64,000 nucleotides of DNA from Euglena gracilis (GCA_039621445.1 CP154954.1:29047837-29111836), one strand, 5' to 3'. Shown: positions 1 through 47,926, counted from the stretch's first letter. Made by a program: numbers and translations. The notes: generated from the sequence alone by a model not told the origin.

Positions 1-3000
1 TGGACCAAATTGGGCCTTACTCCGAGTAACCGAATGGGTGTTCCAGGAGGCCTCCAAAGTCAGGGGACCCGTTGGTTTCATGATTGTCGTGGTTTAATGG
101 TAAGAAAAACATGCAGCCCGAATGTTGGTTGCAAGAAATGAGCACATTTAGATGGGTGCATTCGACCATTTCGAAGGACACTTACCAGGTCAGCCCAGGT
201 TACCATGTAAAAATGGACCAAATTGGGCCTTACTCCGAGTAACCGAATGGGTGTTCCAGGAGGCCTCCAAAGTCAGGGGACCCGTTGGTTTCATGATTGT
301 CGTGGTTTAATGGTAAGAAAAACATGCAGCGGGAATGTTGGTTGCAAGAAATGAGCAGATTTAGATGGGTGCATTCGACCATTCCGGGGGACATTTACCA
401 GGTCAGCCCAGGTTACCATGTAAAAATGGACCAAATTGGGCCTTACTCCGAGTAACCGAATGGGTGTTCCAGGAGGCCTCCAAAGTCAGGGGACCCGTTG
501 GTTTCATGATTGTCGTGGTTTAATGGTAAGAAAAACATGCAGCCGGAAGGTTGGTTGCAAGAAATGAGCACACTTAGATGGGTGCATTCGACCATTCCGG
601 GGGACATTTACCAGGTCAGCCCAGGTTACCATGTAAAAATGGACCAAATTGGGCCTTACTCCGAGTAACCGAATGGGTGTTCCAGGAGGCCTCCAAAGTC
701 AGGGGACCCGTTGGTTTCATGATTGTCGTGGTTTAATGGTAAGAAAAACATGCAGCCGGAAGGTTGGTTGCAAGAAGTAGCACATTTAGATGGGTGCATT
801 CGACCATTCCGGGGGACATTTACCAGGTCAGCCCAGGTTACCATGTAAAAATGGACCAAATTGGGCCTTACTCCGAGTAACCGAATGGGTGTTCCAGGAG
901 GCCTCCAAAGTCAGGGGACCCGTTGGTTTCATGATTGTTGTGGTTTAATGGTAAGAAAAACATGCAGCGGGAATGTTGGTTGCAAGAAATGAGCACACTT
1001 AGATGGGTGCATTCGACCATTCCGGGGGACATTTACCAGGTCAGCCCAGGTTACCATGTAAAAATGGACCAAATTGGGCCTTACTCCGAGTAACCGAATG
1101 GGTGTTCCAGGAGGCCTCCAAAGTCAGGGGACCCGTTGGTTTCATGATTGTCGTGGTTTAATGGTAAGAAAAACATGCAGCGGGAATGTTGGTTGCAAGA
1201 AATGAGCAGATTTAGATGGGTGCATTCGACCATTCCGGGGGACATTTACCAGGTCAGCCCAGGTTACCATGAAAAAATGGACCAAATTGGGCCTTACTTC
1301 GAGTAACCGAATGGGTGTTCCAGGAGGCCTCCAAAGTCAGGGGACCCGTTGGTTTCATGATTGTCGTGGTTTAATGGTAAGAAAAACATGCAGCCGGAAG
1401 GTTGGTTTCAAGAAATAAGCACACTTAGATGGGTGCATTCGACCATTCCGGGGGAAATTTACCAGGTCAGCCCAGGTTACCATGTAAAACCGGACCAAAT
1501 TGGGCCTTACTCCGAGTAACCGAATGGGTGTTCCAGGAGGCCTCCAAAGTCAGGGGACCCGTTGGTTTCATGATTGTCGTGGTTTAATGGTAAGAAAAAC
1601 ATGCAGCGGGAATGTTGGTTGCAAGAAATGAGCACACTTAGATGGGTGCATTCAACCATTCCGGGGGACGTTTACCAGGTCAGCCCAGGTTACCATGCAA
1701 AAATGGACCAAATTGGGCCTTACTCCGAGTAACCGAATGGGTGTTCCAGGAGGCCTCCAAAGTCAGGGGACCCGTTGGTTTCATGATTGTCGTGGTTTAA
1801 TGGTAAGAAAAACATGCAGCCGGAAGGTTGGTTGCAAGAAATGAGCACATTTAGTTGGGTGCATTCGACCATTCCGGGGGACATTTACCAGGTCAGCCCA
1901 GGTTACCATGCAAAAATGGACCAAATTGGGCCTTACTCCGAGTAACCGAATGGGTGTTCCAGGAGGCCTCCAAAGCCAGGGGACCCGTTGGTTTCATGAT
2001 TGTCGTGGTTTAATGGTAAGAAAAACATGCAGCGAAAATGCTGGTTGCAAGAAATGAGCACATTTAGATGGGTGCATTCGACCATTTCGAAGGACACTTA
2101 CCAGGTCAGCCCAGGTTACCATGTAAAAATGGACCAAATTGGGCCTTACTCCGAGTAACCGAATGGGTGTTCCAGGAGGCCTCCAAAGTCAGGGGACCCG
2201 TTGGTTTCATGATTGTCGTGGTTTAATGGTAAGAAAAACATGCAGCGGGAATGTTGGTTGCAAGAAATGAGCAGATTTAGATGGGTGCATTCGACCATTC
2301 CGGGGGACATTTACCAGGTCAGCCCAGGTTACCATGAAAAAATGGACCAAATTGGGCCTTACTCCGAGTAACCGAATGGGTGTTCCAGGAGGCCTCCAAA
2401 GTCAGGGGACCCGTTGGTTTCATGATTGTCGTGGTTTAATGGTAAGAAAAACATGCAGCGGGAATGTTGGTTGCAAGAAATGAGCAAATTTAGATGGGTG
2501 CATTCGACCATTTCGGTGGACATTTACCAGTCAGCCCAGGTTACCATGTAAAAATGGACCAAATTGGGCCTTACTCCGAGTAACCGAATGGGTGTTCCAG
2601 GAGGCCTCCAAAGTCAGGGGACCCGTTGGTTTCATGATTGTCGTGGTTTAATGGTAAGAAAAACATGCAGCCGGAAGGTTGGTTGCAAGAAATGAGCAGA
2701 TTTAGATGGGTGCATTCGACCATTCCGGGGGAAATTTACCAGGTCAGCCCAGGTTACCATGTAAAAATGGACCAAATTGGGCCTTACTCCGAGTAACCGA
2801 ATGGGTGTTCCAGGAGGCCTCCAAAGTCAGGGGACCCGTTGGTTTCATGATTGTCGTGGTTTAATGGTAAGAAAAACATGCAGCCGGAAGGTTGGTTTCA
2901 AGAAATGAGCACATTTAGATGGGTGCATTCGACCATTCCGGGGGACATTTACCAGGTCAGCCCAGGTTACCATGTAAAAATGGACCAAATTGGGCCTTAC

Positions 3001-5616
3001 TCCGAGTAACCGAATGGGTGTTCCAGGAGGCCTCCAAAGTCAGGGGACCCGTTGGTTTCATGATTGTCGTGGTTTAATGGTAAGAAAAACATGCAGCGGA
3101 ATTGTTGGTTGCAAGAAACGAGATGGGTGCATTCGACCATTCCGGGGGACATTTACCAGGTCAGCCCAGGTTACCATGTAAAAATGGACCAAATTGGGCC
3201 TTACTCCGAGTAACCGAATGGGTGTTCCAGGAGGCCTCCAAAGTCAGGGGACCCGTTGGTTTCATGATTGTCGTGGTTTAATGGTAAGAAAAACATGCAG
3301 CCGGAAGTTTGGTTGCAAGAAATGAGCACATTTAGATGGGTGCATTCGACCATTCCGGGGGACATTTACCAGGTCAGCCCAGGTTACCATGTAAAAATGG
3401 ACCAAATTGGGCCTTACTCCGAGTAACCGAATGGGTGTTCCAGGAGGCCTCCAAAGTCAGGGGACCCGTTGGTTTCATGATTGTCGTGGTTTAATGGTAA
3501 AAAAAACATGCAGCGGGAATGTTGGTTGCAAGAAATGAGCACATTTAGATGGGTGCATTCGACCATTCCGGGGGACATTTACCAGGTCAGCCCAGGTTAC
3601 CATGTAAAAATGGACCAAATTGGGCCTTACTCCGAGTAACCGAATGGGTGTTCCAGGAGGCCTCCAAAGTCAGGGGACCCGTTGGTTTCATGATTGTCGT
3701 GGTTTAATGGTAAGAAAAACATGCAGCCGGAATGTTCGTTGCAAGAAATGAGCACACTTAGATGGGTGCATTCGACCATTCCGGGGGACATTTACCAGGT
3801 CAGCCCAGGTTACCATGTAAAAATGGACCAAATTGGGCCTTACTCCGAGTAACCGAATGGGTGTTCCAGGAGGCCTCCAAAGTCAGGGGACCCGTTGGTT
3901 TCATGATTGTCGTGGTTTAATGGTAAGAAAAACATGCAGCGGGAATGTTGGTTGCAAGAAATGAGCAGGTTTAGATGGGTGCATTCGACCATTCCGGGGG
4001 ACATTTACCAGGTCAGCCCAGGTTACCATGAAAAAATGGACCAAATTGGGCCTTACTCCGAGTAACCGAATGGGTGTTCCAGGAGGCCTCCAAAGTCAGG
4101 GGACCCGTTGGTTTCATGATTGTCGTGGTTTAATGGTAAGAAAAACATGCAGCGGGAATGTTGGTTGCAAGAAATGAGCAGATTTAGATGGGTGCATTCG
4201 ACCATTCCGGGGGACATTTACCAGGTCAGCCCAGGTTACCATGAAAAAATGGACCAAATTGGGCCTTACTCCGAGTAACCGAATGGGTGTTCCAGGAGGC
4301 CTCCAAAGTCAGGGGACCCGTTGGTTTCATGATTGTCGTGGTTTAATGGTAAGAAAAAAATGAGCGGGAACGTTGGTTGCAAGAAATGAGCAGATTTAGA
4401 TGGGTGCATTCGACCATTCCGGGGGACATTTACCAGGTCAGCCCAGGTTACCATGTAAAAATGGACCAAATTGGGCCTTACTCCGAGTAACCGAATGGGT
4501 GTTCCAGGAGGCCTCCAAAGTCAGGGGACCCGTTGGTTTCATGATTGTCGTGGTTTAATGGTAAGAAAAACATGCAGCCGGAAGGTTGGTTGCAAGAAAT
4601 AAGCACACATAGATGGGTGCATTCGACCATTCCGGGGGACATTTACCAGGTCAGCCCAGGTTACCATGTAAAAATGGACCAAATTGGGCCTTACTCCGAG
4701 TAACCGAATGGGTGTTCCAGGAGGCCTCCAAAGTCAGGGGACCCGTTGGTTTCATGATTGTCGTGGTTTAATGGTAAAAAAAACATGCAGCGGGAATGTT
4801 GGTTGCAAGAAATGAGCACACTTAGATGGGTGCATTCGACCATTCCGGGGGACATTTACCAGGTCAGCCCAGGTTACCATGTAAAAATGGACCAAATTGG
4901 GCCTTACTCCGAGTAACCGAATGGGTGTTCCAGGAGGCCTCCAAAGTCAGGGGACCCGTTGGTTTCATGATTGTCGTGGTTTAATGGTAAGAAAAACATG
5001 CAGCGGGAATGTTGGTTGCAAGAAATGAGCAGATTTAGATGGGTGCATTCGACCATTCCGGGGGACATTTACCAGGTCAGCCCAGGTTACCATGAAAAAA
5101 TGGACCAAATTGGGCCTTACTTCGAGTAACCGAATGGGTGTTCCAGGAGGCCTCCAAAGTCAGGGGACCCGTTGGTTTCATGATTGTCGTGGTTTACTGG
5201 TAAGAAAAACATGCAGCCGGAAGGTTGGTTTCAAGAAATAAGCACACTTAGATGGGTGCATTCGACCATTCCGGGGGAAATTTACCAGGTCAGCCCAGGT
5301 TACCATGTAAAACCGGACCAAATTGGGCCTTACTCCGAGTAACCAAATGGGTGTTCCAGGAGGCCTCCAAAGTCAGGGGACCCGTTGGTTTCATGATTGT
5401 TGTGGTTTATTGGTAAGAAAAACATGCAGCGGGAATGTTGGTTGCAAGAAATGAGCACACTTAGATGGGTGCATTCAACCATTCCGGGGGACGTTTACCA
5501 GGTCAGCCCAGGTTACCATGTAAAAATGGACCAAATTGGGCCTTACTCCGAGTAACCGAATGGGTGTTCCAGGAGGCCTCCAAAGTCAGGGGACCCGTTG
5601 GTTTCATGATTGTCGT
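1..5616. repeat. 213-bp tandem satellite, about 26 copies, runs off the left edge of the window
   Basis: The unit starting TGGACCAAATTGGGCCTTACTCCGAG recurs at 1, 214, 427, 640 and so on. Copies are nearly identical. The array ends abruptly after ...CATGATTGTCGT at 5616. Confidence 0.98.
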
Positions 5617-7055
5617 CCGTAGATGTCGGCCTCTGCTTCCAACAGCACTGGGCAGTTGGACTGGTGCTGCAGGCACCAACCGGCTCCAGACGTGGTAGTG
5701 TGAGACCCGCAGAGGGTGCACCGGACGTAGTAGTAGGTAGGCAGCAAAGGCGCGGGTCGCCCCCCGTCAGGGCCCGGCAGGGGCATGTCGGTGAGCCTTA
5801 TGAGAAACAGGTCACTCATTTGGAGGCTGCGTAGGATGTGCAGGAGGTCTCCAGAGTCCGGTCCTGGAAGACACCAGGGTCCGGGATTAGACTCAATGTC
5901 TCCACATGTCAGCAGATTTTCCCCCCGCCCCTGGCAAGGCAGCGCGGCACAAGACAGGTAGGGTACACGAGTCGACACCGCCTTGTTCTGGCGGTGGTAG
6001 AGCACCTCTATGTCAGTCCAGGTGCAGCGAAGGCAGCACACTTTGTGCAGCCAGGGAGGAGGGCGGTCGGGGATGTCCGGCCACGCTGCCGTGCGTGCCA
6101 CTGGGGGGTAGGGGGCGAGACAATTCTTGGGCCCGATCCGGGGTCGTGGCGGCGATGGGGGGGGTGGTGGGACAGCTGGGGGCGGCCGTTTCGGCCGCGC
6201 CGGGGGGGGCGACCACTGGAGGTCCTCCTCCCGGAGATGACCCGGGCGCTGGGCATGGAGCGCCTGAGCGAGGCGGATGGCCTCCCCCCTGGTCGGGATG
6301 CGGCGCGGGCAAGGCGAGGGAGGCGGTGCAGCGGCTGGCGCCCTTGCGCTCTCCAGGGGGGCGCCCCACAAGCGGTGACGGCGCACGAAGTCCAGCTCCC
6401 GGCCGTGTAATTCCCACCGCTCTGTGAGGAGCCGTAAGGTGCGGGCCAGCTTTTCGGTCCAGGTCTCCCCCCCTGCCTGCCGCCTGCTCTCCCTCCGAGC
6501 CAAAAATTTGGCCCGGAGTTCCCCCCGGGGGGTCCGTCCGCAGGGGTGGTCTTCTGCGCTCGGGGGGTCAGGTGGGCCTTCCTCCGGGCTTGGGGGAGGG
6601 GCCGGCACCGTTTCCTGCCACAACCCGGGCGGCTGTTCCACCCAGCCACCGAGGAACGTGGCGCCGTACTCCCACTGAGTACCATCCCAAGCATAGGGGG
6701 GCCGAGGGGGGGGTGCTGCGAAGATGCGGAAAGGGGCCGACTTGTTCCAGCCGGGGCCACTTTCATAGGCCAGGTCAAGCAGGGGGGCAGGAAGAGGGGA
6801 CCAGGGGCCCCCAGCCTCGCTTCCATCTGCTGTGGGGTCCTCCGTTCCCCTTTGGGGGGTTGGGCCGTCTTGGGGGTCTCCTCCCTGCTGGCGACGGGTG
6901 GGCCTGAGCCTTGGCCCAGCCACCCCGCTGACCGAGCTGGGGGTCTCCTCTCCAGCAGTTGCCAATCTGAAAGGGCTCCCCGGTTCCCCCACTCCAATTG
7001 TATTCTGTGAGCGCGGGCCAGATTTGAGATTTATTTTTGTAAGAACTGCCAGCAA
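5604..7055 (-). CDS. ORF2: Pro-rich ORF with a 2A (StopGo) peptide and CxxC motifs; probably a retroelement-type polyprotein, 3' end cut off by the satellite
   Basis: 483-codon open frame containing GRGENLLTCGDIESNPGP plus CCLRC and CTLC...C..H motifs. No in-frame ATG before the 2A. The TGA stop (5604-5606) lies inside the satellite unit. Confidence 0.6.
   Translation of the reverse strand: MLAVLTKINLKSGPRSQNTIGVGEPGSPFRLATAGEETPSSVSGVAGPRLRPTRRQQGGDPQDGPTPQRGTEDPTADGSEAGGPWSPLPAPLLDLAYESGPGWNKSAPFRIFAAPPPRPPYAWDGTQWEYGATFLGGWVEQPPGLWQETVPAPPPSPEEGPPDPPSAEDHPCGRTPRGELRAKFLARRESRRQAGGETWTEKLARTLRLLTERWELHGRELDFVRRHRLWGAPLESARAPAAAPPPSPCPRRIPTRGEAIRLAQALHAQRPGHLREEDLQWSPPPARPKRPPPAVPPPPPSPPRPRIGPKNCLAPYPPVARTAAWPDIPDRPPPWLHKVCCLRCTWTDIEVLYHRQNKAVSTRVPYLSCAALPCQGRGENLLTCGDIESNPGPWCLPGPDSGDLLHILRSLQMSDLFLIRLTDMPLPGPDGGRPAPLLPTYYYVRCTLCGSHTTTSGAGWCLQHQSNCPVLLEAEADIYGRQS
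5877..5930 (-). other. 2A ribosome-skipping peptide coding sequence (GRGENLLTCGDIESNPGP)
   Basis: Matches the D(V/I)ExNPGP consensus and closely resembles Thosea asigna virus T2A (EGRGSLLTCGDVEENPGP). Confidence 0.9.
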
Positions 7056-7152
7056 AAATTAGGCATTGCCTCACAGAGATTTTGGGGAATTACATTTTTC
7101 ACAGGCAAGCTGGCAAACAGTGTACAAGTTTGCGTGGGACTCTGAACTGGAT

Positions 7153-8448
7153 TCAAAGTATCAAGTCTTGTCTTCTGGGGTGCTGTGTGGGGAAGTTTGG
7201 GAAGAAGACCCCTGAAGGCTGAAAAGTTGGAATTGGCCAGAAGTCTGATGTGGTGAAATTATCTGGACACAATGGACCATCCCCCAACTTGCAATTCGCC
7301 TTGGGCTGTTCCACTCCCGACCCATCTGGGAGGGGGGGGGTGGTCCCCGATTTTTTCCGGATGCTTTTCTGTTTCAAACATGATTGGGCCATCTGGGTCA
7401 TCAATTCCCTTGTCGGGATGTTTTCCAGTTTCTGGGGGTGTCTCCCCCCAGACCTGTGGGGATTCCAACTCTGATGGGAGGGGGGGGGGGTGGCTTCATG
7501 CGCAATGGGATAGCGACAGCAATGTGGAGAGTGGTGGTGTTTCGTGTATTTTTTAGAGGGGCGATGTCGGTGATGTCGACTATGATGTCGATGTGGGCAC
7601 CTTGTCCTGGCTGTGGGTCGTTTCACCTGGCTGCATGATGATGATGATGCTGAGGAGGGTGATGATGAAGTAGAGGGTGACGATGATGTGGTTGAGGTCG
7701 ATCTTGTCGATGCTCGGGGTGGGGAATATGGAGGAGGTGGCTGGGCTTCCTGGTGCATGTCGAGGGGGGTGGGCTGCAGGAGTCTGGTTTGGTTGTGCAG
7801 CATTTGCTGCAGCTGCTGCATCTGTTGCAGCTGCTGTTGATGAAGCTGTAGCAGCGCCATGTCCATGTCCGGCTTGCTTCTGCTGTTCTTTTCCATCTCC
7901 ACCCTGCTCCTCGGAGTCAGGTCCATGTCCCACATGCCTCGTTTGAGGACTTGATCTGTGTTAGATGATGATGCTGCAGCTTTGGGCTCCATGCGGGGCT
8001 GGGGTTCCCGCCATCTGGGGCTGCAGGGCTGTCTCTGTCTCTCCTGCTGCCTGGGCCCTTCTGCATGGGGGGACCGTCTGGTGCTGCGGGGCTGTCTCTC
8101 CCGCTGCTTGGGCTGTCTGGGGCTGCAGGGCTGATACTCCTGCTGCCTGGGGTCATCACGTTTGGGGCTGCAGCGGGGCTGATACTCCCGCTGTCCCCGT
8201 CTGTCGCCACTGCTTCGGGGCTGGTACTCCCGCTGCTCGCAGGGATCGGGGTACTCCTGGTAGCTCTGCTCAATGTCCAGCTTCCTTCTTTTTCTGGACT
8301 GCTGCCTCATGGCCTGTCTCTGGGCCTTGTCTTTGTAGCGGTCGCCATATCGTTGACGGAGTGCCTCTTCCCAGGCTTCATCAGAGGCGTACTGCTCTTC
8401 TTGTCTGGAACGCCTCCTCACTTCGTGGTACTTCTTCCCATCGTCCAT
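7153..8448 (-). CDS. ORF1: intronless low-complexity protein (about 431 aa; R/Q/E repeats, RKRRK, poly-Q, poly-S, His-rich), function unknown
   Basis: ATG at 8448 (MDDGKKYHEV...), 114 nt downstream of a genomic SL copy; open to 7153; internal EYQPRS/CSP repeats. Confidence 0.6.
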   Translation of the reverse strand: MDDGKKYHEVRRRSRQEEQYASDEAWEEALRQRYGDRYKDKAQRQAMRQQSRKRRKLDIEQSYQEYPDPCEQREYQPRSSGDRRGQREYQPRCSPKRDDPRQQEYQPCSPRQPKQRERQPRSTRRSPHAEGPRQQERQRQPCSPRWREPQPRMEPKAAASSSNTDQVLKRGMWDMDLTPRSRVEMEKNSRSKPDMDMALLQLHQQQLQQMQQLQQMLHNQTRLLQPTPLDMHQEAQPPPPYSPPRASTRSTSTTSSSPSTSSSPSSASSSSCSQVKRPTARTRCPHRHHSRHHRHRPSKKYTKHHHSPHCCRYPIAHEATPPPSHQSWNPHRSGGRHPQKLENIPTRELMTQMAQSCLKQKSIRKKSGTTPPLPDGSGVEQPKANCKLGDGPLCPDNFTTSDFWPIPTFQPSGVFFPNFPTQHPRRQDLIL

Positions 8449-8562
8449 CGCCAAATTCTTGAGTAACACACCTCGCAATGTCCTGAAACTTCAGATTCCC
8501 CAGGTAAATGTTAATAAAGCTTGACCCCAACCCGGGGCTTTCAGGACAGGTTATGCGGAAGA

Positions 8563-8587
8563 CGAAAAAAAATAGACACTCAGAAAG
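8563..8587 (-). other. Genomic copy of the Euglena spliced-leader exon (CTTTCTGAGTGTCTATTTTTTTTCG)
   Basis: The reverse complement of CGAAAAAAAATAGACACTCAGAAAG matches 25 nt of the Euglena SL as I recall it (ACTTTCTGAGTGTCTATTTTTTTTCG). It is followed by TC, not a GT donor, so it is not an SL RNA gene. Confidence 0.88.
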
Positions 8588-10578
8588 AGGGTTCGCTAAA
8601 TTCAATAGGATGAACCCTTCAGGAATTAGGACCGTCATCTGCTCGCGATCACATTCCACTGGTTGACAGACCAAGAAGTGAAACCATGCAGTGACAGGTG
8701 GGTGCAATTGCTCGCGGTAGCCCTTCCAAACGACAAATAGCATGTCGACATGGGCCACGCGCACGTGCACGACACGCGCGACACACGTGTCGAGCCGTGC
8801 CGAACCATGCCGAATAAAAATGGGACAGACCCCCTTCCAACACTGCACCATTGCCCCCCCCCCCAGCGATTCCCACAGGCGGGACGGGAGTAGCTCACTG
8901 TCAGAGCACTTTTTTAAAAGAAAACCCCCAAAAGTGTTCAAAAATCGTCGTTTTTGGGGACGTTTAAAAATCACCTTTTGGCAAATGTGCTTGAAATTAA
9001 CAATTTTTTGCGAACATCCCAAAAACCAAAAAAACTTGCCAAAATGATTGAATGAGTGTCCGAGGTTCGGGTTGGGAACAGCTCGGGGGGGGGGGGGGGA
9101 CCGATCCCCCCCCTGTTCCCTTTGGGCTCAGAGGTCCCATCGTGAAGTGGTGGGGAACAGGTGGTTTTTTCCAGTTTCCAAGTGGCATTTAACGTTGCTT
9201 TTTTGTTACAGGGCTCACTGATCAAGTTCCCTCCCGAACCCAATTTTCAGCCAATTATCATAATCCTGGCAACCTCAAAACCCCAAATCCCATAAATTGG
9301 CACTCCTCACCCAAGATGTTAGCTCACTTTTTTTTGCTTTTCTATGTTTACAGCTAAACCCGAAAATGTCGGCCCTGAGTGCCGAAAACCCCGGCTCCAA
9401 GTACAAAATACTGGCCCGTGGTGCCCAAACTTGGTGAAGACTGTCCTGGATAAAGCATCTTTTGCAAATTTTTTTGGGTACAAGGAGCTGTTCCTGGGTT
9501 TTGGGGACTTGGGCTGAAATTAAAGAGATTTTTTTTTGCCGTGGACCTTCAATGGCGTTTGTTGGGTTTTTTTTTAGAAAAAGAAAACACGGTTCTTTTT
9601 TTTTTAACCGTGCTTTTCTTTTCCGGTTCAGGCGTGAAGCCAGAGCCCCTGATACACGGTTTCCATATCGAGAACTGTGTCCCAAACGCCGGTTTGGGCG
9701 TGAACCTGGTGCCTGGGACGCCAGTTCGGGTGTCAGCCCGAACCGGCAGTTCGGGCGTGAACCCGGATCCCCCTAGAAAACCTTTTCAGCTGTGTCCCAG
9801 ATGGGAATCACGGCCAATTTCGCCCCAAGTACCCATCAATCCCCAATGCCCATCAATCGAAAGCTTTCAGCAGATGGAATTCGGCCATAATGCACATAGC
9901 TCTTATTTTCAGCGATCGTGTATTCCAAAATTTGACATATTAATTTGTCAAAACCCACAGTTCAGGTTGCATATTGCCCAAAATTGGCCAAAAGGAAATT
10001 GTTGTTCAAACCCCCAATTTCCGGAAGACCCCCCTTGCCTTAGCTGTTCCTCTGGGGCTGAAGGGGGGGGGGGAAGTTTTCGCCCGTTTCGGAGCCTTTT
10101 GCAAAACCAGGAAAATTCCCAAATTTCAGGGGGGGGAAATTTTCGGGGGGGGGACAATTTACGGCTAGGGACTGTAATCATATTTGAGTTTTGTGGGTTG
10201 GGACTTTTTTTTTGTACATGCAAGGGCAGCACAGCTTCACCACTTGCATGGCCCCTGGGTCGAGGACTTGACATCTTTTGGGTTTTTTTTGTCCATTGAA
10301 CCATCCCCGGCATATATCTATCAATAAGACCCACCGCCCTGAACAGAGGTGTTCGGGAATATACCATAACAACCCCACAACATACGGCAAATGAATTCCG
10401 AATCCCGGTCGGCTTCATGGCTTCAAAGAATAGAAGGGACGAGGCAAAGTGCCCGAAACGGCCGAAAATTCCCCCCCCCCCTGGTCAAGAGCCCAAAAAC
10501 CCCTCCCTAGGGGGGGGGAAATTTACGCCCAGGGACTGTACCACATGTCTACAAACCCCTTTGGACACTTGTTGGTAC

Positions 10579-10618: not shown

Positions 10619-34384
<23,766 letters not shown>

Positions 34385-38660: not shown

Positions 38661-41600
38661 CCTGGCGGAGAGGAGGCCAGCAGCCAGCCTGATCGAGGAC
38701 ACATCGATTGGCACACTTCTTCAGAGGACAAACCTGCCAGTTTATACATGTACACTCCTGCCCCCCTGGTGGAATGGGGGGCCCACTGGGGGGTTACCCC
38801 GAGGTTATCCAACAAGCGTTTTGTCAAACTCCCAATGGTTTTTGCAGACAGGGGTGTAAATGGAGGTTTTAAACTTAATAATAAATGTCCCCCAGGTGGA
38901 GCACAGTGAGATGTCAAGCTGACATACTTCTTCATGTTGAACCAGGGGCAAATATTGGGACATGAAGGAATTCGGGGGATTTCCTCCGACTGAGTCTGTC
39001 TCCAACCCTTTCTTCTGACCTGGACAAAAATCTCGCCATCAACCTGGGACACTGTCCTGAAGGTTCGGCTCAAGTCCACTGAGCGATGCAAACAGATGAG
39101 TCTGAAACTTAAAATGACTTGGTCCCTCAGGTCACTGAGGCACTCTGGGGGAGGTGCTGCTGCCAACTTCTGAAGTAATGATTCAGGATTCCAAAAAGAA
39201 GGATACCTGGGGGTGGATGGGTGGATTGACATTGACTCGGATAAAACACAAACTGAAGGGACAGTGGTTCCAACCCTGGCGGAGAGGAGGCCAGCCGCCA
39301 GCCTGATCGAGGACCCCAGTCGGACTCCGGTGAAGAATGGTCCAGGAGGAAGGGACAGCGAAGGCGGAGCACAAGACAACAGTGAGGTCCTGCTCTTCTT
39401 TCCGGCTGTTGTTTTTGTGTTTGGTGTTGGTTGTGGTGCTTCTTACTGCGATGAGTTGTCGGAGTAGGCGGACTCGGAGATGTTGTCGGACTTCTCGGTG
39501 GCTGGCGGAGGTGGGTTGCTGGCCTGTCTGTGGGTGAATGGAAATTTCTCGGGGGGGGGGCTGACCGACTTTTTTGTTCTCTTCCGGGTCGGGGCGGGCG
39601 GGCTCACTGTTGTCTTGTGCTCCACCTTCGCTGTCCCCTCCTCCTGGATCATTCTTCACCGGAGTCCGAGACTGCTCCGGCTCCGCAGAAGACCCCAGTG
39701 AGGATTTGTGCACTTTTTTTTGGACAGCAACCCCCGCATTTTTTCCCGCTTCCAACCGCAAATAATGGGAAGAAAAGGCCTTCACATTTTTCCATTTTCT
39801 AATTTGGCACACTTTTTCAGAGGACAAACCTGCCAGTTTATACATGTACACTCCTGCCCCCCTGGTGGAATGGGGGGCCCACTGGGGGGGGTACCCCATG
39901 GTTATCCAACAATCGTTTTGTCAAACTCCGAATGGTTTTTGCAGACAGGGGGGTAAATGGAGGTTTTAAACTTAATAATAAATGTCCCCCAGGAGGGGCA
40001 CAGTGAGATGTCAAACTGACATATTTCTTCATGTTGAACCAGGGGCAAATATTGGGACATGAAGGAATTTGGGGGATTTCCTCCGACTGAGTCTGTCTCC
40101 AACCCTTTCTTCTGACCTGGGCAAACATCTTGCCATCAACCTGGGACACTGTCCTGAAGGTTCGGCTCAAGTCCACTGAGCGATGCAAACAGATGAGTCT
40201 GAAACTTAAAATGACTTGGTCCCTCAGGTCACTGAGGCACTCTGGGGGAGGTGCTGCTGCCAACTTCTGAAGTAATGATTCAGGATGCCAGAAAGAAGGA
40301 TACCTGGGGGTGGATGGGTGGATTGACATTGACTCGGATAAAACACAAACTGAAGGGACAGTGGTTCCAACCCTGGCGGAGAGGAGTCCTGCCGCCAGCC
40401 TGATCGAGGACCCCAGTCGGACTCCGGTGAAGAATGCTACAGAAGGAACAGACAGCGAAGGCGGAGCACAAGACAACAGTGAGGTCCTGCTCTTCTTTCC
40501 GGCTGTTGTTTTTGTGTTTGGTGTTGGTTGTGGTGCTTCTTACTGCGATGAGTTGTCGGAGTAGGCGGACTCGGAGATGTTGTCAGACTTCTCGGTGGCT
40601 GGCGGAGGTGGGTTGCTGGCCTGTCTGTGGGTGAATGGAAATTTCTCGGGGGGGGGGGGCTGACCGACCTTTTTGTTCTCTTCCGGGTCGGGGCGGGCGG
40701 GCTCACTGTTGTCTTGTGCTCCACCTTCGCTGCACCTCCTCCTGGATCATTCTTCACCGGAGTCAGAGTCTGCTCCGGCTCCGCAGAAGACCCCAGTGAG
40801 GATTTGGCACCTTTTTTTGGACAGCAACCCCCGCATTTTTTCCCGCTTCCAACCGCAAATAATGGGAAGAAAAGGCCTGCACATTTTTCCATTTTCTAAT
40901 TTGGCACACTTCTTCAGAGGACAAACCTACCAGTTTGTACACGTACACTCCTGCCCCCCTGGTGGAATGAGGGGCCCACTGTGGGGGGGGGGTACCCCGT
41001 GGTTTTCCAACAGTCGTTTTGTCAAACTCCCAATGGTTTTTGCGGACAGGGGGGTAAATGGAGGTTTTAAACTTAATAATAAATGTCCCCCAGGGGGGGC
41101 ACAGTGAGATGTCAAACTGACATATTTCTTCATGTTGAACCAGGGGCAAATATTGGGACATGAAGGAATTTGGGGGATTTCCTCCGACTGAGTCTGTCTC
41201 CAACCCTTTCTTCTGACCTGGACAAACATCTTGCCATCAACCTGGGACACTGTCCTGAAGGTTCGGCTCAAGTCCACTGAGCGATGCAAACTGATGAGTC
41301 TGAAACTTAAAATGACTTGGTCCCTCAGGTCACTGAGGCACTCTGGGGGAGGTGCTGCTGCCAACTTCTGAAGTAATGATTCAGCATTCCAAAAAGAAGG
41401 ATACCTGGGGGTGGATGGGTGGATTGACATTGACTCGGATAAAACACAAACTGAAGGGACAGTGGTTCCAACCCTGGCGGAGAGGAGGCCAGCCGCCAGC
41501 CTGATCGAGGACCCCAGTCGGACTCCGGTGAAGAATGCTCCAGAAGGAACGGACAGGGAAGGTGGAGCACAAGACAACAGTGAGGTCCTGCTCTTCTTTC

Positions 41601-44600
41601 CGGCTGTTGTTTTTGTGTTTGGTGTTGGTTGTGGTGCTTCTTACTGCGATGAGTTGTCGGAGTAGGCGGACTCGGAGATGTTGTCAGACTTCTCGGTGGC
41701 TGGCGGCGGTGGGTTGCTGGCCTGTCTGTGGGTGAATTGAAATTTCTCGGGGGGGGGGGCTGACCGACTTTTTTGTTCTCTTCCGGGTCGGGGCGGGCGG
41801 GCTCACTGTTGTCTTGTGCTCCACCTTCGCTGTCCCCTCCTCCTGGATCATTCTTCACCGGAGTCCGAGACTGCTCCGGCTCCGCAGAAGACCCCAGTGA
41901 GGATTTGTGCAGTTTTTTTTGGACAGCAACCCCCGCATTTTTTCCCGCTTCCAACCGCAAATAATGGGAAGAAAAGGCCTGCACATTTTTCCATTTTCTA
42001 ATTTGGCACACTTCTTCAGAGGACAAACCTGCCAGTTTATACATGTACACTCCTGCCCCCCTGGTGGAATGGGGGGCCCACTGGGGGGGTACCCCATGGT
42101 TATCCAACAATCGTTTTGTCAAACTCCCAATGGTTTTTGCAGACAGGGGGGTAAATGGAGGTTTTAAACTTAATAATAAATGTCCCCCAGGAGGGGCACA
42201 GTGGGATGTCAAACTGACATATTTCTTCATGTTGAACCAGGGGCAAATATTGGGACATGAAGGAATTTGGGGGATTTCCTCCGACTGAGTCTGTCTCCAA
42301 CCCTTTCTTCTGACCTGGGCAAACATCTTGCCATCAACCTGGGACACTTTCCTGAAGGTTCGGCTCAAGTCCACTGAGCGATGCAAACAGATGAGTCTGA
42401 AACTTAAAATGACTTGGTCCCTCAGGTCACTGAGGCACTCTGGGGGAGGTGCTGCTGCCAACTTCTGGAGTAATGATTCAGGATTCCAGAAAGAAGGATT
42501 CCTGGGGGTGGATGGGTGGATTGACATTGACTCGGATAAAACACAAACTGAAGGGACAGTGGTTCCAACCCTGGCGGAGAGGAGGCCTGCCGCCAGCCTG
42601 ATCGAGGACCCCAGTCGGACTCCGGTGAAGAATGCTACAGAAGGAACAGACAGCGAAGGCGGAGCACAAGACAACAGTGAGGTCCTGCTCTTCTTTCCGG
42701 CTGTTGTTTTTGTGTTTGGTGTTGGTTGTGGTGCTTCTTACTGCGATGAGTTGTCGGAGTGGGCGGACTCGGAGATGTTGTCGGACTTCTCGGTGGCTGG
42801 CGGCGGTGGGTTGCTGGCCTGTCTGTGGGTGAATTGAAATTTCTCGGGGGGGGGGGGCTGACCGACTTTTTTGTTCTCTTCCGGGTCGGGGCGGGCGGGC
42901 TCACTGTTGTCTTGTGCTCCACCTTCGCTGTCCCCTCCTCCTGGATCATTCTTCACCGGAGTCCGAGACTGCTCCGGCTCCGCAGAAGACCCCAGTGAGG
43001 ATTTGGCACCTTTTTTTGGACAGCAACCCCCGCATTTTTTCCCGCTTCCAACTGCAAATAATGGGAAGAAAAGGCCTGCACATTTTTCCATTTTCTAATT
43101 TGGCACACTTCTTCAGAGGACAAACCTACCAGTTTGTACACGTACACTCCTGCCCCCCTGGTGGAATGAGGGGCCCACTGTGGGGGGGGGTACCCCGTGG
43201 TTTTCCAACAGTCGTTTTGTCAAACTCCCAATGGTTTTTGCGGACAGGGGGGTAAATGGAGGTTTTAAACTTAATAATAAATGTCCCCCAGGGGGGGCAC
43301 AGTGAGATGTCAAACTGACATATTTCTTCATGTTGAACCAGGGGCAAATATTGGGACATGAAGGAATTTGGGGGATTTCCTCCGACTGAGTCTGTTTCCA
43401 ACCCTTTCTTCTGACCTGGACAAACATCTTGCCATCAACCTGGGACACTGTCCTGAAGGTTCGGCTCAAGTCCACTGAGCGATGCAAACTGATGAGTCTG
43501 AAACTTAAAATGACTTGGTCCCTCAGGTCACTGAGGCACTCTGGGGGAGGTGCTGCTGCCAACTTCTGAAGTAATGATTCAGCATTCCAAAAAGAAGGAT
43601 ACCTGGGGGTGGATGGGTGGATTGACATTGACTCGGATAAAACACAAACTGAAGGGACAGTGGTTCCAACCCTGGCGGAGAGGAGGCCAGCCGCCAGCCT
43701 GATCGAGGACCCCAGTCGGACTCCGGTGAAGAATGATCCAGGAGGAAGGGACAGCGAAGGCGGAGCACAAGACAACAGTGAGGTCCTGCTCTTCTTTCCG
43801 GCTGTTGTTTTTGTGTTTGGTGTTGGTTGTGGTGCTTCTTACTGCGATGAGTTGTCGGAGTAGGCGGACTCGGAGATGTTGTCGGACTTCTCGGTGGCTG
43901 GCGGCGGTGGGTTGCTGGCCTGTCTGTGGGTGAATTGAAATTTCTCGGGGGGGGGGCTGACCGACTTTTTTGTTCTCTTCCGGGTTGGGGCGGGCGGGCT
44001 CACTGTTGTCTTGTGCTCCACCTTCGCTGCACCTCCTCCTGGATCATTCTTCACCGGAGTCCGAGACTGCTCCGGCTCCGCACAAGAACCCAGTGAGGAT
44101 TTGTGCACCTTTTTTTGGACAGCAAGCCCCGCATTTTTTCCCGCTTCCAACCGCAAAAAATGGGAAGAAAAGGCCTGCACATGTTTCCATTTTCTAATTT
44201 GGCACACTTCTTCAGAGGACAAACCTGCCAGTTTATACATGTACACTCCTGCCCCCCTGGTGGAATGGGGGGCCCACTGGGGGGTTACCCCGTGGTTATC
44301 CAACAGGCGTTTTGTCAAACTCCCAATGGTTTTTGCAGACAGGGGGGTAAATGGAGGTTTTAAACTTAATAATAAATGTCCCCCAGGTGGAGCACAGTGA
44401 GATGTCAAGCTGACATACTTCTTCATGTTGAACCAGGGGCAAATATTGGGACATGAAGGAATTTGGGGGATTTCCTCCGACTGAGTCTGTCTCCAACCCT
44501 TTCTTCTGACCTGGACAAACATCTTGCCATCAACCTGGGACACTTTCCTGAAGGTTCGGCTCAAGTCCACTGAGCGATGCAAACAGATGAGTCTGAAACT

Positions 44601-45804
44601 TAAAATGACTTGGTCCCTCAGGTCACTGAGGCACTCTGGGGGAGGTGCTGCTGCCAACTTCTGAAGTAATGATTCAGGATTCCAGAAAGAAGGATACCTG
44701 GGGGTGGATGGGTGGATTGACATTGACTCGGATAAAACACAAACTGAAGGGACAGTGGTTCCAACCCTGGCGGAGAGGAGGCCTGCCGCCAGCCTGATCG
44801 AGGACCCCAGTCGGACTCCGGTGAAGAATGATCCAGGAGGAAGGGACAGCGAAGGCGGAGCACAAGACAACAGTGAGGTCCTGCTCTTCTTTCCGGCTGT
44901 TGTTTTTGTGTTTGGTGTTGGTTGTGGTGCTTCTTACTGCGATGAGTTGTCGGAGTAGGCGGACTCGGAGATGTTGTCAGACTTCTCGGTGGCTGGCGGC
45001 GGTGGGTTGCTGGCCTGTCTGTGGGTGAATTGAAATTTCTCGGGGGGGGGGGCTGACCGACTTTTTTGTTCTCTTCCGGGTCGGGGCGGGCGGGCTCACT
45101 GTTGTCTTGTGCTCCACCTTCGCTGTCCCCTCCTCCTGGATCATTCTTCACCGGAGTCCGAGTCTGCTCCGGCTCCGCAGAAGACCCCAGTGAGGATTTG
45201 TGCACCTTTTTTTGGACAGCAACCCCCGCATTTTTTCCCGCTTCCAACCGCAAATAACGGGAAGAAAAGGCCTGCACATTTTTCCATTTTCTAATTTGGC
45301 ACACTTCTTCAGAGGACAAACCTACCAGTTTGTACACGTACACTCCTGCCCCCCTGGTGGAATGAGGGGCCCACTGGGGGGGGTACCCCATGGTTTTCCA
45401 ACAGTCGTTTTGTCAAACTCCCAATGGTTTTTGCGGACAGGGGGGTAAATGGAGGTTTTAAACTTAATAATAAATGTCCCCCAGGGGGGGCACAGTGAGA
45501 TGTCAAACTGACATATTTCTTCATGTTGAACCAGGGGCAAATATTGGGACATGAAGGAATTTGGGGGATTTCCTCCGACTGAGTCTGTCTCCAACCCTTT
45601 CTTCTGACCTGGGCAAACATCTTGCCATCAACCTGGGACACTGTCCTGAAGGTTCGGCTCAAGTCCACTGAGCGATGCAAACAGATGAGTCTGAAACTTA
45701 AAATGACTTGGTCCCTCAGGTCACTGAGGCACTCTGGGGAGGTGCTGCTGCCAACTTCTGAAGTAACGATTCAGGATTCCAAAAAGAAGGATACCTGGGG
45801 GTGG
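38611..45804 (-). repeat. Tandem array of a ~1.1-kb unit (flank + right ITR + ICR + tyrosine recombinase catalytic domain), about 7 copies, the first internally deleted
   Basis: The landmark GGA(T)ACCTGGGGGTGG recurs at ~39201, 40298, 41399, 42496, 43597, 44692 and 45789. Confidence 0.95.
41325..42527 (-). CDS. Tyrosine recombinase catalytic-domain copy with an unbroken frame (array copy 4)
   Basis: From ATG at 42527: MSIHPSTPR..FW...LHRSVDL (R)...HSTRGAG (HxxR)...KWKN (W)...FSSHY (Y). Another unbroken copy lies in 43839-44870. Confidence 0.6.
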   Translation of the reverse strand: MSIHPSTPRNPSFWNPESLLQKLAAAPPPECLSDLRDQVILSFRLICLHRSVDLSRTFRKVSQVDGKMFAQVRRKGWRQTQSEEIPQIPSCPNICPWFNMKKYVSLTSHCAPPGGHLLLSLKPPFTPLSAKTIGSLTKRLLDNHGVPPQWAPHSTRGAGVYMYKLAGLSSEEVCQIRKWKNVQAFSSHYLRLEAGKNAGVAVQKKLHKSSLGSSAEPEQSRTPVKNDPGGGDSEGGAQDNSEPARPDPEENKKVGQPPPPRNFNSPTDRPATHRRQPPRSLTTSPSPPTPTTHRSKKHHNQHQTQKQQPERRAGPHCCLVLHLPCPFLLEHSSPESDWGPRSGWRLASSPPGLEPLSLQFVFYPSQCQSTHPPPGILLFGMLNHYFRSWQQHLPQSASVT

Positions 45805-47007: not shown

Positions 47008-47926
47008 TTACCCTAAATCCCCGTGGTGTGTGAGCCCCTTCCCTCCGATTTTCTTTCTTTCCCCCAGTTGAGGGTGCCCGTGTGACCACAGCCCTGCGAC
47101 CTGTAGTACCCCTGCCAGGTTGGTGGGGAACCCCAAATGTGTGGTGAGGCCAATTTGAAAGATTGATTTTGCCCTGGTTTTGAAACCCCTGCAGATCATG
47201 TGAGATTTTTGGTTGTGAAGCTTCGTCCCCCGCAAAATGTCCTGATCCATTTCTTTGGCCCTCACGTTTTCCAGGCATAAAAGGCCTTTGGCCCTCCAAC
47301 GTTTTTCCAGGCACTTCATGAGGCTCATGAATTTTTCTGGCAGCACATTTAAACCAAAACAAGCTGCCTGGAATTCCCAGCATGTTTCCTCCAGAGTCAT
47401 CCTCATGTAGGGTTTTAGGGTTGCGTTCAACATTAAATGAAAGTAGGTGTCTTTTAAGTCTACTTTCGCTCCCCACTGTCCTTTCTTCAGGTGCCTGAAG
47501 ATGACCTGGATGTTGTCCAGTTTGAAAGGGTGGGGGGGAAAGTGCTGGTTTAGTTGGCGACAATCGCTTATTAAACGATGTTTTCCCCCCTGAGGCTCTT
47601 TTTTGGAGATAACAAACCAGGGGATGATGTGTTGGGTACCCTCCCAGGGGACTGGTCTTATGGCTCCTGCTTGGAAATAGTCTTGTAAATTTTTTTTGCC
47701 TTTTGAATTTCCACCTCTGATTTTGGTATAGAAAATGTGCTGAGGTAGGGGGATGCCTCCCAAGGGGGGGGGGGTTACCCCCTGTGTTATGAGTTGCAAC
47801 ACCCTGGGGGGGGGCAACTTTCTGCCACCATGGCAACTGGGACTGAAGTCTCTGAAACAGAGGCACTCCCAAAAAGTGCTCCTCTGTCAGCAGCAGCCCC
47901 TCGGTGATCTGCTCCACAGATCTCAA
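47008..47926 (-). pseudogene. DIRS reverse transcriptase (frameshifted; YxDD region missing)
   Basis: WFVISKKE..KHRLISDCRQLN..FKLDN..KVDLKDTYFHL..FQAACFGLN. Confidence 0.88.

Follow-up and report, generated by a model that had tools for sequence, protein, structure and literature searches.

The RLE-type clades of non-LTR elements have been described as single-ORF elements (PMC3708506). Utopia elements carry a zinc finger at the N-terminus, the reverse transcriptase (RT) in the middle, and a zinc finger together with the RLE at the C-terminus; SLACS has served as the outgroup for the RLE clades (both PMC4640811). CZAR and SLACS insert between nucleotides 11 and 12 of the mini-exon in spliced leader (SL) gene arrays, while L1Tc is a single-ORF element with an APE endonuclease, a Pr77 promoter/ribozyme and SL-less transcripts (both PMC5814959). 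A DNA-encoded SL is known from the DinoSL retrogenes of dinoflagellates, where it marks the reverse transcription of trans-spliced mRNA (PMC6050394, PMC5585692). Our literature search found no description of SL-tagged retrocopies in euglenids. Unusual RT diversity in E. gracilis has been noted in a survey of DAM-TEs (bioRxiv 10.64898/2026.05.21.726589). The unit described here lies on the minus strand of a 64-kb stretch of the Euglena gracilis genome (GCA_039621445.1, CP154954.1:29047837-29111836), hereafter the window, within which all positions are counted.

The minus strand at 8563-8587 reads CTTTCTGAGTGTCTATTTTTTTTCG, an exact 25-nt match to nucleotides 2-26 of the 26-nt E. gracilis SL (reference sequence from PMC6242988); position 1 of the SL is T instead of A. 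The match occurs once in the window with up to three mismatches allowed, and in none of 100 shuffles. The bases right after it, TCTTCC, lack the GT start of a splice donor. In an SL RNA gene, the exon continues with a GT intron. Here the exon copy directly adjoins an ATG-free 5' UTR of 114 nt (8449-8562, hereafter the leader), followed by the first ATG of a 431-codon frame: the arrangement of an SL-tagged retrocopy, with the SL intron absent. The SL copy and the 114-nt leader are thus as the preliminary description gave them. It had also proposed that the unit acquires or targets the SL. Acquisition by RNA trans-splicing is the better reading, because the SL bases form an unbroken run of 25 ahead of an ordinary leader, with no further SL copy within 64 kb; the same observations argue against targeting. 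The intact SL fits reverse transcription of a trans-spliced RNA, by analogy with dinoflagellate retrogenes. The window copy carries one SL only, with no tandem relicts.

Two open reading frames follow, colinear and uninterrupted across roughly 3 kb. ORF1 occupies 7153-8448 on the minus strand (ATG at 8448-8446, TGA stop at 7155-7153), and its 431 codons are longer than chance would give: none of 2000 mononucleotide shuffles of its region reached that many open codons. The predicted protein is of low complexity, rich in R, P, Q and S. Its Pfam scan gives a sub-threshold SR-25 match only, and a single-sequence AF2 model shows two long helices (residues 3-65 and 194-224), with the remainder below pLDDT 50. 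The spacer to ORF2, previously put at about 100 nt, measures 94 nt (7059-7152), and the second frame is +1 relative to the first. The stability of the spacer fold is not unusual (z -0.77), and an Rfam scan of 5500-9200 finds no match at gathering score. The spacer holds an A-rich patch, CAAAAATAAA.

ORF2 runs on the minus strand from 7058 to a stop at 5604-5606, 484 codons in all, of which 480 (5617-7058) are element-derived. Its length was reached in none of 2000 mononucleotide shuffles of the region. There is no ATG before aa 414, where the first Met codon lies beyond the 2A peptide discussed below. Among the relatives, P0014 matches furthest towards the N-terminus, from aa 108-110 on, and the open frame begins about 50 codons before this point, so that ORF2 looks N-terminally complete and not randomly broken; by eye, the first Met of P0014 aligns near ORF2 aa 68. 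Pfam finds no RT in ORF1, ORF2 or the spacer frame, and no Dam family in ORF2. Neither a nuclease nor a 3' end is present in the window copy, and the window holds no second copy of either ORF.

The 2A (StopGo) peptide, QGRGENLLTCGDIESNPGP, spans 5877-5933 on the minus strand (ORF2 aa 376-394) and fits the motif D(V/I)ExNPGP as defined in 10.64898/2026.09.24.754024. Its GDIESNPGP is the sole match of this type in the six frames of the window; a looser expression that also accepts bare NPGP gives seven matches, the other six being bare NPGP without D(V/I)Ex. The peptide shares 14 of 19 residues with the third 2A of the synthetic construct P0032, which we take as T2A from the order of parts in the source name. 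Ribosome skipping would putatively occur at G|P. The peptide is followed by a module of about 84 aa (5625-5876, minus strand), which holds a C-x2-C-x14-H-x3-C motif, CTLCGSHTTTSGAGWCLQHQSNC, at 5652-5720 (minus strand; aa 447-469). The four residues are invariant in all 12 sequences of alignment A1; in alignment A3 (20 sequences) the three cysteines are invariant and the histidine is at least 90% conserved. The motif is a putative zinc-binding site. In an AF2 model built from A3, mean pLDDT is 77-97 in each 10-residue block from residue 41 onwards, and the predicted fold consists of a helix, a strand, a hairpin and two helices; a search of PDB and BFVD with this fold gave no significant match. 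The ATG-less ORF2 with a T2A-like peptide and Cys motif is therefore present, as first noticed.

A first-round search with ORF2 returned 19 matches at E<=1e-3 among 1.84 billion representatives. Eighteen match the 2A/module region, and one, P0014, matches aa 108-226 (E 2e-15 over aa 110-226). P0002 aligns colinearly with aa 192-472 in one HSP (31% identity, E 5e-28), and P0001 with aa 394-478 (67% identity, E 1e-34). These three closest relatives are short, with no RT seen. In P0005 (741 aa), the 2A and module run into RVT_1 at E 1.2e-4, below the Pfam cut-off. A profile search for long proteins gave 15 matches, 12 of them with the RT family PF00078; the long relatives that share the 2A and the zinc-finger module are polyproteins of 1,575-2,004 aa. 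All 15 long proteins and 17 of the 19 relatives from the first round carry one to four copies of the D(V/I)ExNPGP motif. In P0020, P0021, P0022 and P0023, matches of module length are found ahead of the YxDD box (BLASTP E 1e-8 to 3e-4; 97-131 bits in the profile search), and P0025 has a weaker one. Identity between the window and the RT-bearing relatives is 33-39% over about 100 aa only. ORF2 thus contains an N-terminal zinc-finger module homologous to that of RT-bearing members, and its derivation from a retroelement is supported because its 2A and Cys/His module match modules upstream of RT in long polyproteins.

The RT of these relatives belongs near R2. Alignment A2 comprises the RT of nine of the 12 RT-bearing long relatives, and its profile matches the R2 proteins 9nl3/9dou in PDB at E 7e-18, against 7e-4 for LINE-1 ORF2p, with no LTR-type RT at E<=0.1. 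An APE endonuclease is listed by Pfam for none of the 12. On these grounds the relatives are not of the L1Tc/ingi type named in the preliminary description, and we also reject membership of that clade in view of the SL start of the unit. Near the C-terminus, C1440, C1443, H1453 and C1457, and later D1498, D1513 and K1543, are invariant in all nine aligned relatives. The PDB matches span the RT alone, and the nuclease part of R2 has no sequence match in the relatives; by their motifs, the CCHC and D...D...K residues may form a PD-(D/E)xK-like nuclease. A Dam-like methyltransferase with an NPPF motif is present in eight of the 15 long relatives; Pfam PF05869 identifies a Dam-like domain in P0006, P0015, P0026 and P0029, all distant relatives.

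The other end of the unit meets a 213-bp satellite that spans 1-5616 (26.4 copies, 96% matches, TRF score 10469; confirmed by self-BLAST). The window begins within the satellite and does not show the far side of the array. The monomer is 100% identical up to 5616, and the break falls at 5616/5617. The last three codons of ORF2 and its TGA stop (5604-5606, within the minus-strand junction segment 5604-5616) lie inside the satellite, in agreement with the initial observation that the frame reaches the junction. The last residues that align with P0001 are ...AEAD (nt 5625), and P0001 goes on for 14 residues into TGRGD, by its sequence the start of a second 2A. The copy is therefore cut short at the satellite: P0001, 67% identical, continues past the break whereas the window reads into satellite. 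The preliminary description had seen the 5' half of an element whose RT/endonuclease part was lost. Retroelement derivation and the cut at the satellite stand; the RT of the relatives is R2-like and not L1Tc/ingi-like. Since non-LTR copies usually lack their 5' and not their 3' part, the 3' truncation seen here requires either a second event or a misassembly. No flanking direct repeat of at least 9 nt, which could represent a target-site duplication, was found; the copy lacks its 3' end.

These observations can be joined in one proposal, to which we give even chances: that a euglenid retroelement left a cDNA-derived copy here, whose 5' 2,971 bp are minus-strand 8587-5617. Like any Euglena mRNA, the element RNA would have received the host SL by trans-splicing; reverse transcription would then have reached its extreme 5' end before integration, and for this reason the DNA copy would begin with the SL. 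The RNA would be bicistronic, with a disordered, helix-containing ORF1 protein made from the first AUG, if ORF1 is indeed part of the element, and with the AUG-less ORF2 presumably reached via re-initiation or non-AUG initiation. The N-terminal part of the ORF2 polyprotein would be released by StopGo skipping at the 2A, and the small C2HC zinc-finger module probably binds nucleic acid or the target. In full-length relatives, the module would be followed by more 2A peptides, C2H2-type fingers, the R2-like RT and the C-terminal CCHC and PD-(D/E)xK-like nuclease; the euglenid family itself presumably possesses an RT and nuclease as well. In the window copy, everything beyond the first module would have been lost at the satellite junction.

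A wider reading is possible but rather doubtful: the copy may represent an undescribed euglenid family of R2-like, RLE-type elements. In such a family, the function of an internal promoter or of an HDV-like 5' ribozyme would fall to SL trans-splicing, which would free the element RNA from read-through transcripts and cap it; serial 2A StopGo sites would chop the ORF2 polyprotein so that the zinc-finger modules in front of the RT become free. If this is true, reliance on host trans-splicing would stamp each full-length daughter copy with the SL, whose U8 tract, encoded in the DNA, could even aid the next round of trans-splicing.

ORF1 may be unrelated to the ORF2 family, because no ORF1 homologue is found (none in the search at 236-753 aa, no match in the ESM Atlas) and the long ORF2 relatives are single-ORF proteins. 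The unit could then be a chimera: ORF1 would be an SL-tagged processed retrocopy of an ordinary host mRNA, ORF2 an older fragment of a 2A-bearing retroelement with no relation to it, and chance would have placed the retrocopy just upstream of that fragment. An ORF1-like sequence occurs in none of the 34 collected ORF2 relatives at E<0.5, ORF2 is without an ATG, a composition step lies near 7000, and the patch CAAAAATAAA might be read as a trace of such a retrocopy. A separate ORF1 retrocopy would, however, have to be young, as its intact ORF1 and SL imply, and a poly(A) remnant would be expected; there is none between the two ORFs: from the ORF1 stop as far as ORF2 aa 110, A runs reach a length of 5 at most. 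No direct repeat of at least 9 nt links the SL flank with the spacer region, and ORF2 would need a chance break exactly at its natural N-terminus, in the same orientation. A chimera takes three events, against two for a retroelement copy, and we consider it unlikely. ORF2 has a G+C content of 0.64-0.75, up from about 0.50 in the spacer, and a chimera would show this as well.

Another explanation holds that such an element was domesticated as a host gene, present here as a retrocopy or an active locus: a cellular bicistronic or 2A-processed gene whose SL marks one past retroposition. Both ORFs are intact, the relatives P0001, P0002 and P0014 are short and without RT, and dinoflagellates are known to have a class of SL-tagged retrogenes (PMC6050394). 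The satellite, on the other hand, cuts the frame and gives a stop four codons past the break where the homologue runs on, and by our tally all long proteins with the module contain an RT (PF00078 is listed in 12 of 15). Domestication is therefore improbable.

It is quite improbable, too, that the unit is an assembly artefact, in which genomic flanks were attached to a cDNA-like or chimeric read, or a collapsed repeat was misjoined at 5616/5617. One end falls exactly at a high-copy satellite, a frequent assembly breakpoint, and contaminating cDNA would place an SL in genomic DNA. Yet the 5' flank consists of ordinary non-coding DNA that runs on into 55 kb of genome without a break, and the SL minus its first base adjoins unrelated DNA, as expected of a retrocopy.

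Site-specific insertion by an RLE element of the SLACS/CZAR/NeSL kind at the exon-intron boundary of an SL RNA gene would suit the R2-like RT of the relatives, and repeated genes, spliced-leader exons among them, are frequent targets of RLE-type elements (PMC4640811). It appears very improbable: 25 contiguous SL bases are kept, as opposed to the split at nucleotides 11/12 by CZAR and SLACS (PMC5814959). Position 1 of the SL is mismatched, and the window holds no other SL copy. In Euglena, the SL genes lie together with 5S rRNA genes in tandem arrays; no Rfam family, 5S rRNA included, is found in the window at gathering score. Insertion of the SLACS/CZAR/CRE/NeSL type inside the SL exon itself was likewise rejected, the SL being contiguous, with no second SL and no Rfam match at gathering score nearby. 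An endogenised fragment of a dicistrovirus-like, 2A-bearing bicistronic RNA virus would share the two ORFs, the short gap, the AUG-less second ORF and the T2A-like peptide, but is extremely improbable given that neither ORF has a viral Pfam domain, the spacer is unstructured (z -0.77) with no IRES family match, a BFVD search with the module finds nothing at E<0.26 and the module homologues sit in RT polyproteins.

The retroelement copy resembles several known systems, each in part. With L1Tc/ingi elements it shares a euglenozoan host and a D(V/I)ExNPGP 2A near the N-terminus of an RT polyprotein (PMC3708506); the relatives differ by the missing APE Pfam, the R2-like RT and their multiple 2As, and the window copy differs by its SL head. 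SLACS and CZAR are also euglenozoan retroelements joined to SL sequence, on the RLE side of the non-LTR tree, whereas here SL nucleotides 2-26 are contiguous, outside a detectable SL gene and before a normal leader. The distant relatives with a Dam-like domain recall the DAM-TEs, but the survey of these covers DIRS and LTR elements, its main text contains no occurrence of 2A or spliced leader (10.64898/2026.05.21.726589), and the window ORF2 lacks the Dam family in its Pfam scan. The ORF2 relatives resemble RLE-type elements (R2/NeSL/Utopia/CRE) in their N-terminal zinc fingers, central R2-like RT and C-terminal Cys/His with invariant D...D...K. The 2As between N-terminal modules and the Dam-like methyltransferase (8 of 15) fall outside the classical description, and the window copy differs by the absence of RT and RLE and by an ORF1 that precedes ORF2; it cannot be assigned to R2-like elements by an RT of its own, the RT being present in relatives only (12 of 15 long matches). 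Like DinoSL retrogenes, the unit has a DNA-encoded SL directly upstream of a 5' UTR, but in another lineage and with another spliced leader, in a single copy, and it is itself retroelement-derived, not an ordinary gene. The unit thus combines features of known kinds: an SL-tagged retrocopy, a 2A peptide and the zinc-finger module of R2-like RT polyproteins.

The cassette (8587-5617, minus strand) opens with a DNA copy of the spliced leader (SL) exon. The copy (CTTTCTGAGTGTCTATTTTTTTTCG, 8563-8587, minus strand) is identical to nt 2-26 of the SL of E. gracilis, both as PMC6242988 prints it and as it stands in the PMC5654406 SL primer; at SL position 1 the window has T, not A. Even with three mismatches allowed, the 64 kb hold no other match, and 100 shuffles yielded none. 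The sequence directly 3′ of the copy, TCTTCCGC..., does not start with GT; since an SL RNA gene continues past its exon with a GT intron, the copy is not the exon-intron junction of such a gene. An ATG-free leader of 114 nt follows on the same strand and leads to ORF1 (ATG at 8448, stop at 7155-7153, 431 aa). After a 94-nt spacer, ORF2, also on the minus strand, stays open for 484 codons (7058-5607, stop at 5604-5606), its first Met being aa 414. Shuffles of the ORF1 and ORF2 regions never reached the observed lengths (0/2000 for each), so base composition explains the length of neither. A satellite with a period of 213 bp (1-5616, 26.4 copies, 96% matches) is already underway at the window start and extends up to 5616; hence the ORF2 stop and the last three codons are satellite sequence. 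This satellite is very homogeneous, runs off the window start, and its monomer resembles neither the element nor any stored relative. The layout agrees with the preliminary description, which had listed the SL exon copy, the 114-nt leader, ORF1, a gap of about 100 nt, an ATG-less ORF2 with a T2A-like peptide and a Cys motif, and the end of ORF2 at the satellite junction.

ORF2 belongs to no family in a Pfam scan. A first word-index search with the whole frame (targets of 266-847 aa) returned nothing, probably because proline-rich words swamped the query. Exhaustive phmmer with ORF2 against 1.84 billion representatives (E<=1e-3) finds 19 relatives, 18 of which match aa 330-478 and one, P0014, aa 108-226. 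P0001 (161 aa) aligns with ORF2 aa 394-478 at 67% identity (E 1e-34), P0002 (444 aa) with aa 192-472 in one HSP at 31% (E 5e-28), and P0014 (154 aa) with aa 110-226 at 39% (E 2e-15). The unit common to the relatives is a 2A peptide followed by about 55 residues and then C-x2-C-x14-H-x3-C; 17 of the 19 have between one and three 2A motifs, and these alternate with modules of this kind. The window 2A, QGRGENLLTCGDIESNPGP (ORF2 aa 376-394), fits D(V/I)ExNPGP and is identical at 14 of 19 positions to the third 2A of the synthetic construct P0032, which is T2A by the part order in its source name. The C, C, H and C of the module are invariant in all 12 aligned sequences; an alignment of 20 sequences keeps the three C without exception and the H at 90% conservation or more. 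These invariant ligands point to a putative C2HC zinc finger, which would bind zinc. AlphaFold2, given the 20-sequence alignment, predicts the module confidently from residue 41 on (10-residue blocks average pLDDT 77-97), with a modelled order of helix, strand, hairpin and two helices. Foldseek with this model finds nothing at E<=0.001 in PDB (best 0.94), and the best BFVD match is at 0.26; zinc-ribbon names scattered among this noise were not counted as evidence for the fold. A PDB sequence search with ORF2 gave no match, and ESM Atlas gave no usable match to aa 100-484. The stretch ahead of the 2A (aa 336-375, CLRC...H...C) was rejected as a degenerate 'module 0': BLASTP against the first module gives E 0.29 with 7/15 identical residues, and hhalign against the 20-sequence alignment a probability of 0.2. 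Residues 1-62 of P0001, set against window positions 5880-6060, show no counterpart of the window's 2A (GPGGKPTDMQRSRGQYRPRC vs GRGENLLTCGDIESNPGPWC), though the protein is 67% identical to the window just past that point. By eye, this N-terminal mismatch suggests a paralogous copy that has shifted frame; if so, the family may be multi-copy and decaying.

The module also ties ORF2 to reverse transcriptases. The relative P0005 (741 aa) consists of a 2A with the module, a second 2A, and then an RVT_1 match (E 1.2e-4, under the Pfam cut-off). A search with the 12-sequence module profile, restricted to long proteins of 1,298-3,705 aa, yields 15 matches. PF00078 is present in 12 of them, including P0030, which has LTR-type domains too; the other three, a picornavirus-like polyprotein and two synthetic 2A constructs, match via the 2A alone. 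Alignments run beyond the 2A over the length of the module in P0020, P0021, P0022 and P0023, and more weakly in P0025; each of these proteins has 550-900 residues between the module and the YxDD box further downstream. From N- to C-terminus, the long proteins comprise an N-terminal region, 2A, a Dam-like NPPF methyltransferase (found in 8/15), 2A, the C2HC module, 2A, C2H2-like fingers, the RT and a C-terminal block. The last holds C, C, H, C and then D, D, K, invariant in 9/9 sequences. By its motifs we take this block to be a putative restriction-like nuclease, and with the nuclease so read the layout is an N-ZF / RT / C-ZF + RLE plan. Utopia and its kin have such a plan (PMC4640811). When a profile of nine RT-bearing long proteins is compared with PDB, the match spans the RT only; the solved R2 proteins 9nl3 and 9dou score best (E 7e-18), LINE-1 ORF2p reaches 7e-4, and no LTR-type RT appears at E<=0.1. 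The relatives are not of the L1Tc/ingi type, which the preliminary description had cited as carrying 2A: the RT profile is nearest to R2, and an APE endonuclease Pfam is listed for none of the 12 RT-bearing long proteins. P0020-P0029 and P0034 are polyproteins of 1.4-2.9 kaa with up to four 2A peptides, and the family also has the Dam-like NPPF domain, C2HC and C2H2 fingers, an R2-like RT and the C-terminal CCHC + D..D..K; two of these polyproteins list PF15247. Our literature search found no paper on 2A peptides in RLE-type elements of this layout.

In the relatives, 10-25 residues separate H-x3-C from the next 2A, and P0001 reads ...LLDAEADNQVEHPATGRGDAS past the motif. The window reads ...LLEAEAD and then IYGRQS-stop, running into the satellite, which properly starts inside the G codon of IYGRQS, at 5616. 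Since the window diverges into satellite where the relatives continue, the copy is cut between 5625 and 5616; judged by the spacing in the relatives, the break falls just ahead of the expected second 2A. The downstream part of the element was thus lost at the satellite, as had been supposed. Non-LTR copies are usually truncated at the 5′ end, so the 3′ loss here must be secondary.

R, P, Q and S are abundant in ORF1, which also has short tandem repeats. Its only Pfam match is SR-25 (18.6 bits vs a cut-off of 40); a homologue search at 236-753 aa and ESM Atlas gave none, and nothing matched at E<0.5 among the 34 stored relatives. A single-sequence AlphaFold2 model has a mean pLDDT of 52, with two long predicted helices and low confidence elsewhere. 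An ORF1p-like fold is neither shown nor excluded by the Pfam, homologue, ESM Atlas and AlphaFold2 searches. ORF2 lies in the +1 frame with intervening stops, which makes frameshifting from ORF1 impossible. An IRES-like or structured RNA in the spacer was rejected (fold z-score -0.77; 42/200 shuffles fold as well). Rfam finds nothing at gathering scores in the whole window, and at 5500-9200 only three sub-threshold matches at chance level. In some LINEs the second frame is reached by re-initiation or non-AUG initiation, and ORF2 may be translated by either route.

We put at about even the chance that the locus is a single unit: a euglenid retroelement of the R2-like, 2A-bearing kind, of which the SL-stamped 5′ part remains after truncation by satellite. 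The retroelement interpretation of the preliminary description holds for ORF2, through the homology of its module to those of RT polyproteins and through the truncation; ORF1, which has no match among the relatives, is a putative part of the element. A chimera, in which ORF1 and ORF2 were never one transcript, would explain why ORF1 is absent from known family members, why the long relatives are single-ORF proteins, and why G+C rises from about 0.50 to 0.64-0.75 near 7000. We nevertheless regard it as improbable. With its SL and both ORFs unbroken the copy should be young, but a poly(A) remnant is absent between the ORFs, where no A run exceeds 5, and no flank repeat was found: one 8-mer is the only word of at least 8 nt common to 7160-5590 and the 63 nt preceding the SL. 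A poly(A) tract or target-site duplication bounding a separate ORF1 retrocopy is therefore improbable, though with the 3′ end of the copy missing this is not decisive. The ORF2 frame opens about 50 codons ahead of the first residue matched by a relative (aa 108-110, P0014), and the first Met of P0014 falls, as we read the alignment, at about ORF2 aa 68. Any break would therefore have to coincide exactly with the natural N-terminus, in the orientation of ORF1. A domesticated gene or retrogene seems to us similarly improbable, and an assembly artefact would be rather surprising. Insertion of an element into an SL gene is very unlikely, and an endogenous RNA virus, with a spacer that is not unusually structured and no Rfam family at gathering score, is scarcely credible.

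For the SL-stamped retroelement we propose that the element RNA, probably freed from read-through transcription, would gain the host SL by trans-splicing; a reverse transcriptase would copy this RNA to its 5′ end, and the copy would integrate. Reverse transcription of a trans-spliced RNA to the 5′ end would leave the SL as a stamp on the DNA copy. A later event would have exchanged everything downstream of the first zinc-finger module for satellite, be it expansion of the 213-bp satellite, recombination, or insertion of the array inside the element.

Several other features lie elsewhere in the window. A tandem repeat of about 1.1 kb (38708-45804, roughly 6.5 copies, 96-98% identity) accounts for the open frames at 38.7-45.8 kb. 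Its long minus-strand frames (e.g. 41328-42737, 470 aa) have no Pfam match at E<=0.001, those to Phage_integrase (E 0.15) and NdhN being at chance level. At 47011-47886 (minus strand) a 292-aa open frame matches RVT_1 (E 9.7e-4, 19.3 bits vs a cut-off of 29.6) and may be a decayed RT fragment of another retroelement; as the missing half of the cassette it was rejected (the 34 stored relatives, run by tBLASTn over the remainder of the window, reach E 0.088 at best). An ATG-started 77-aa frame at 10619-10850 (plus strand; MATVPSDIP...) resembles by eye a protein kinase glycine loop and finds nothing in Pfam, and 26916-27716 (plus strand) has a partial Pkinase match (E 1.5e-4, under the cut-off). 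The two may be parts of one long-intron kinase gene that starts about 2 kb from the SL cassette and runs away from it. An interstitial (CTAACC) tract of 10.7 copies, a permutation of the CCCTAA telomere repeat, lies at 24209-24272, with C-rich CCTTACCCACC-type arrays of 100-200 bp nearby (22766-23477). The segments 18651-19041 and 27622-28000 are inverted copies of each other over about 399 bp (88% identity), about 9 kb apart.

If the SL-stamped reading is true, the element would have a trans-spliced, SL-capped RNA as its transposition intermediate. LINE-like elements are known to obtain a defined 5′ end from internal promoters or HDV-like ribozymes; SL capping would be a third route to a defined, translatable 5′ end for a promoter-less LINE-like element. 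The 25-nt SL together with the leader sequence also makes it simple to probe the Euglena genome, which is very rich in repeats, for full-length copies. The locus would likewise extend 2A StopGo peptides to euglenids and to R2-like elements with several of them between small zinc-finger modules, a layout not found in the literature searched.

Among APE-type non-LTR elements, 2A peptides have a solid record (PMC3708506), and they occur more widely (10.64898/2026.06.17.732966). The Cell Rep 2025 survey of 2A gives examples from kinetoplastids and Symbiodinium; the words 'Euglena' and 'Euglenida' are absent from its main text and three of its supplementary files, and from the main text of the 2026 preprint (10.64898/2026.06.17.732966). 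Dam-carrying retroelements, some unusual ones in E. gracilis among them, differ in being described, in the main text of 10.64898/2026.05.21.726589, without 2A or SL. L1Tc differs in its Pr77-driven RNA, which is without SL, and in its APE-type endonuclease (PMC5814959). In SL gene arrays, CZAR and SLACS interrupt the mini-exon at the nt 11/12 boundary (PMC5814959). The preliminary description had the element acquire or target the SL; acquisition fits the 25 contiguous SL nucleotides, and targeting lost ground, a SLACS/CZAR-type split at nt 11/12 being absent. DinoSL relicts identify retrogenes in dinoflagellates (PMC6050394), where the stamp has been very productive for dating and counting retroposition events. 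Our literature search found no euglenid report of a DNA-encoded SL serving in this way, and the present one would be the first; it would work as the DinoSL relicts do (PMC6050394).
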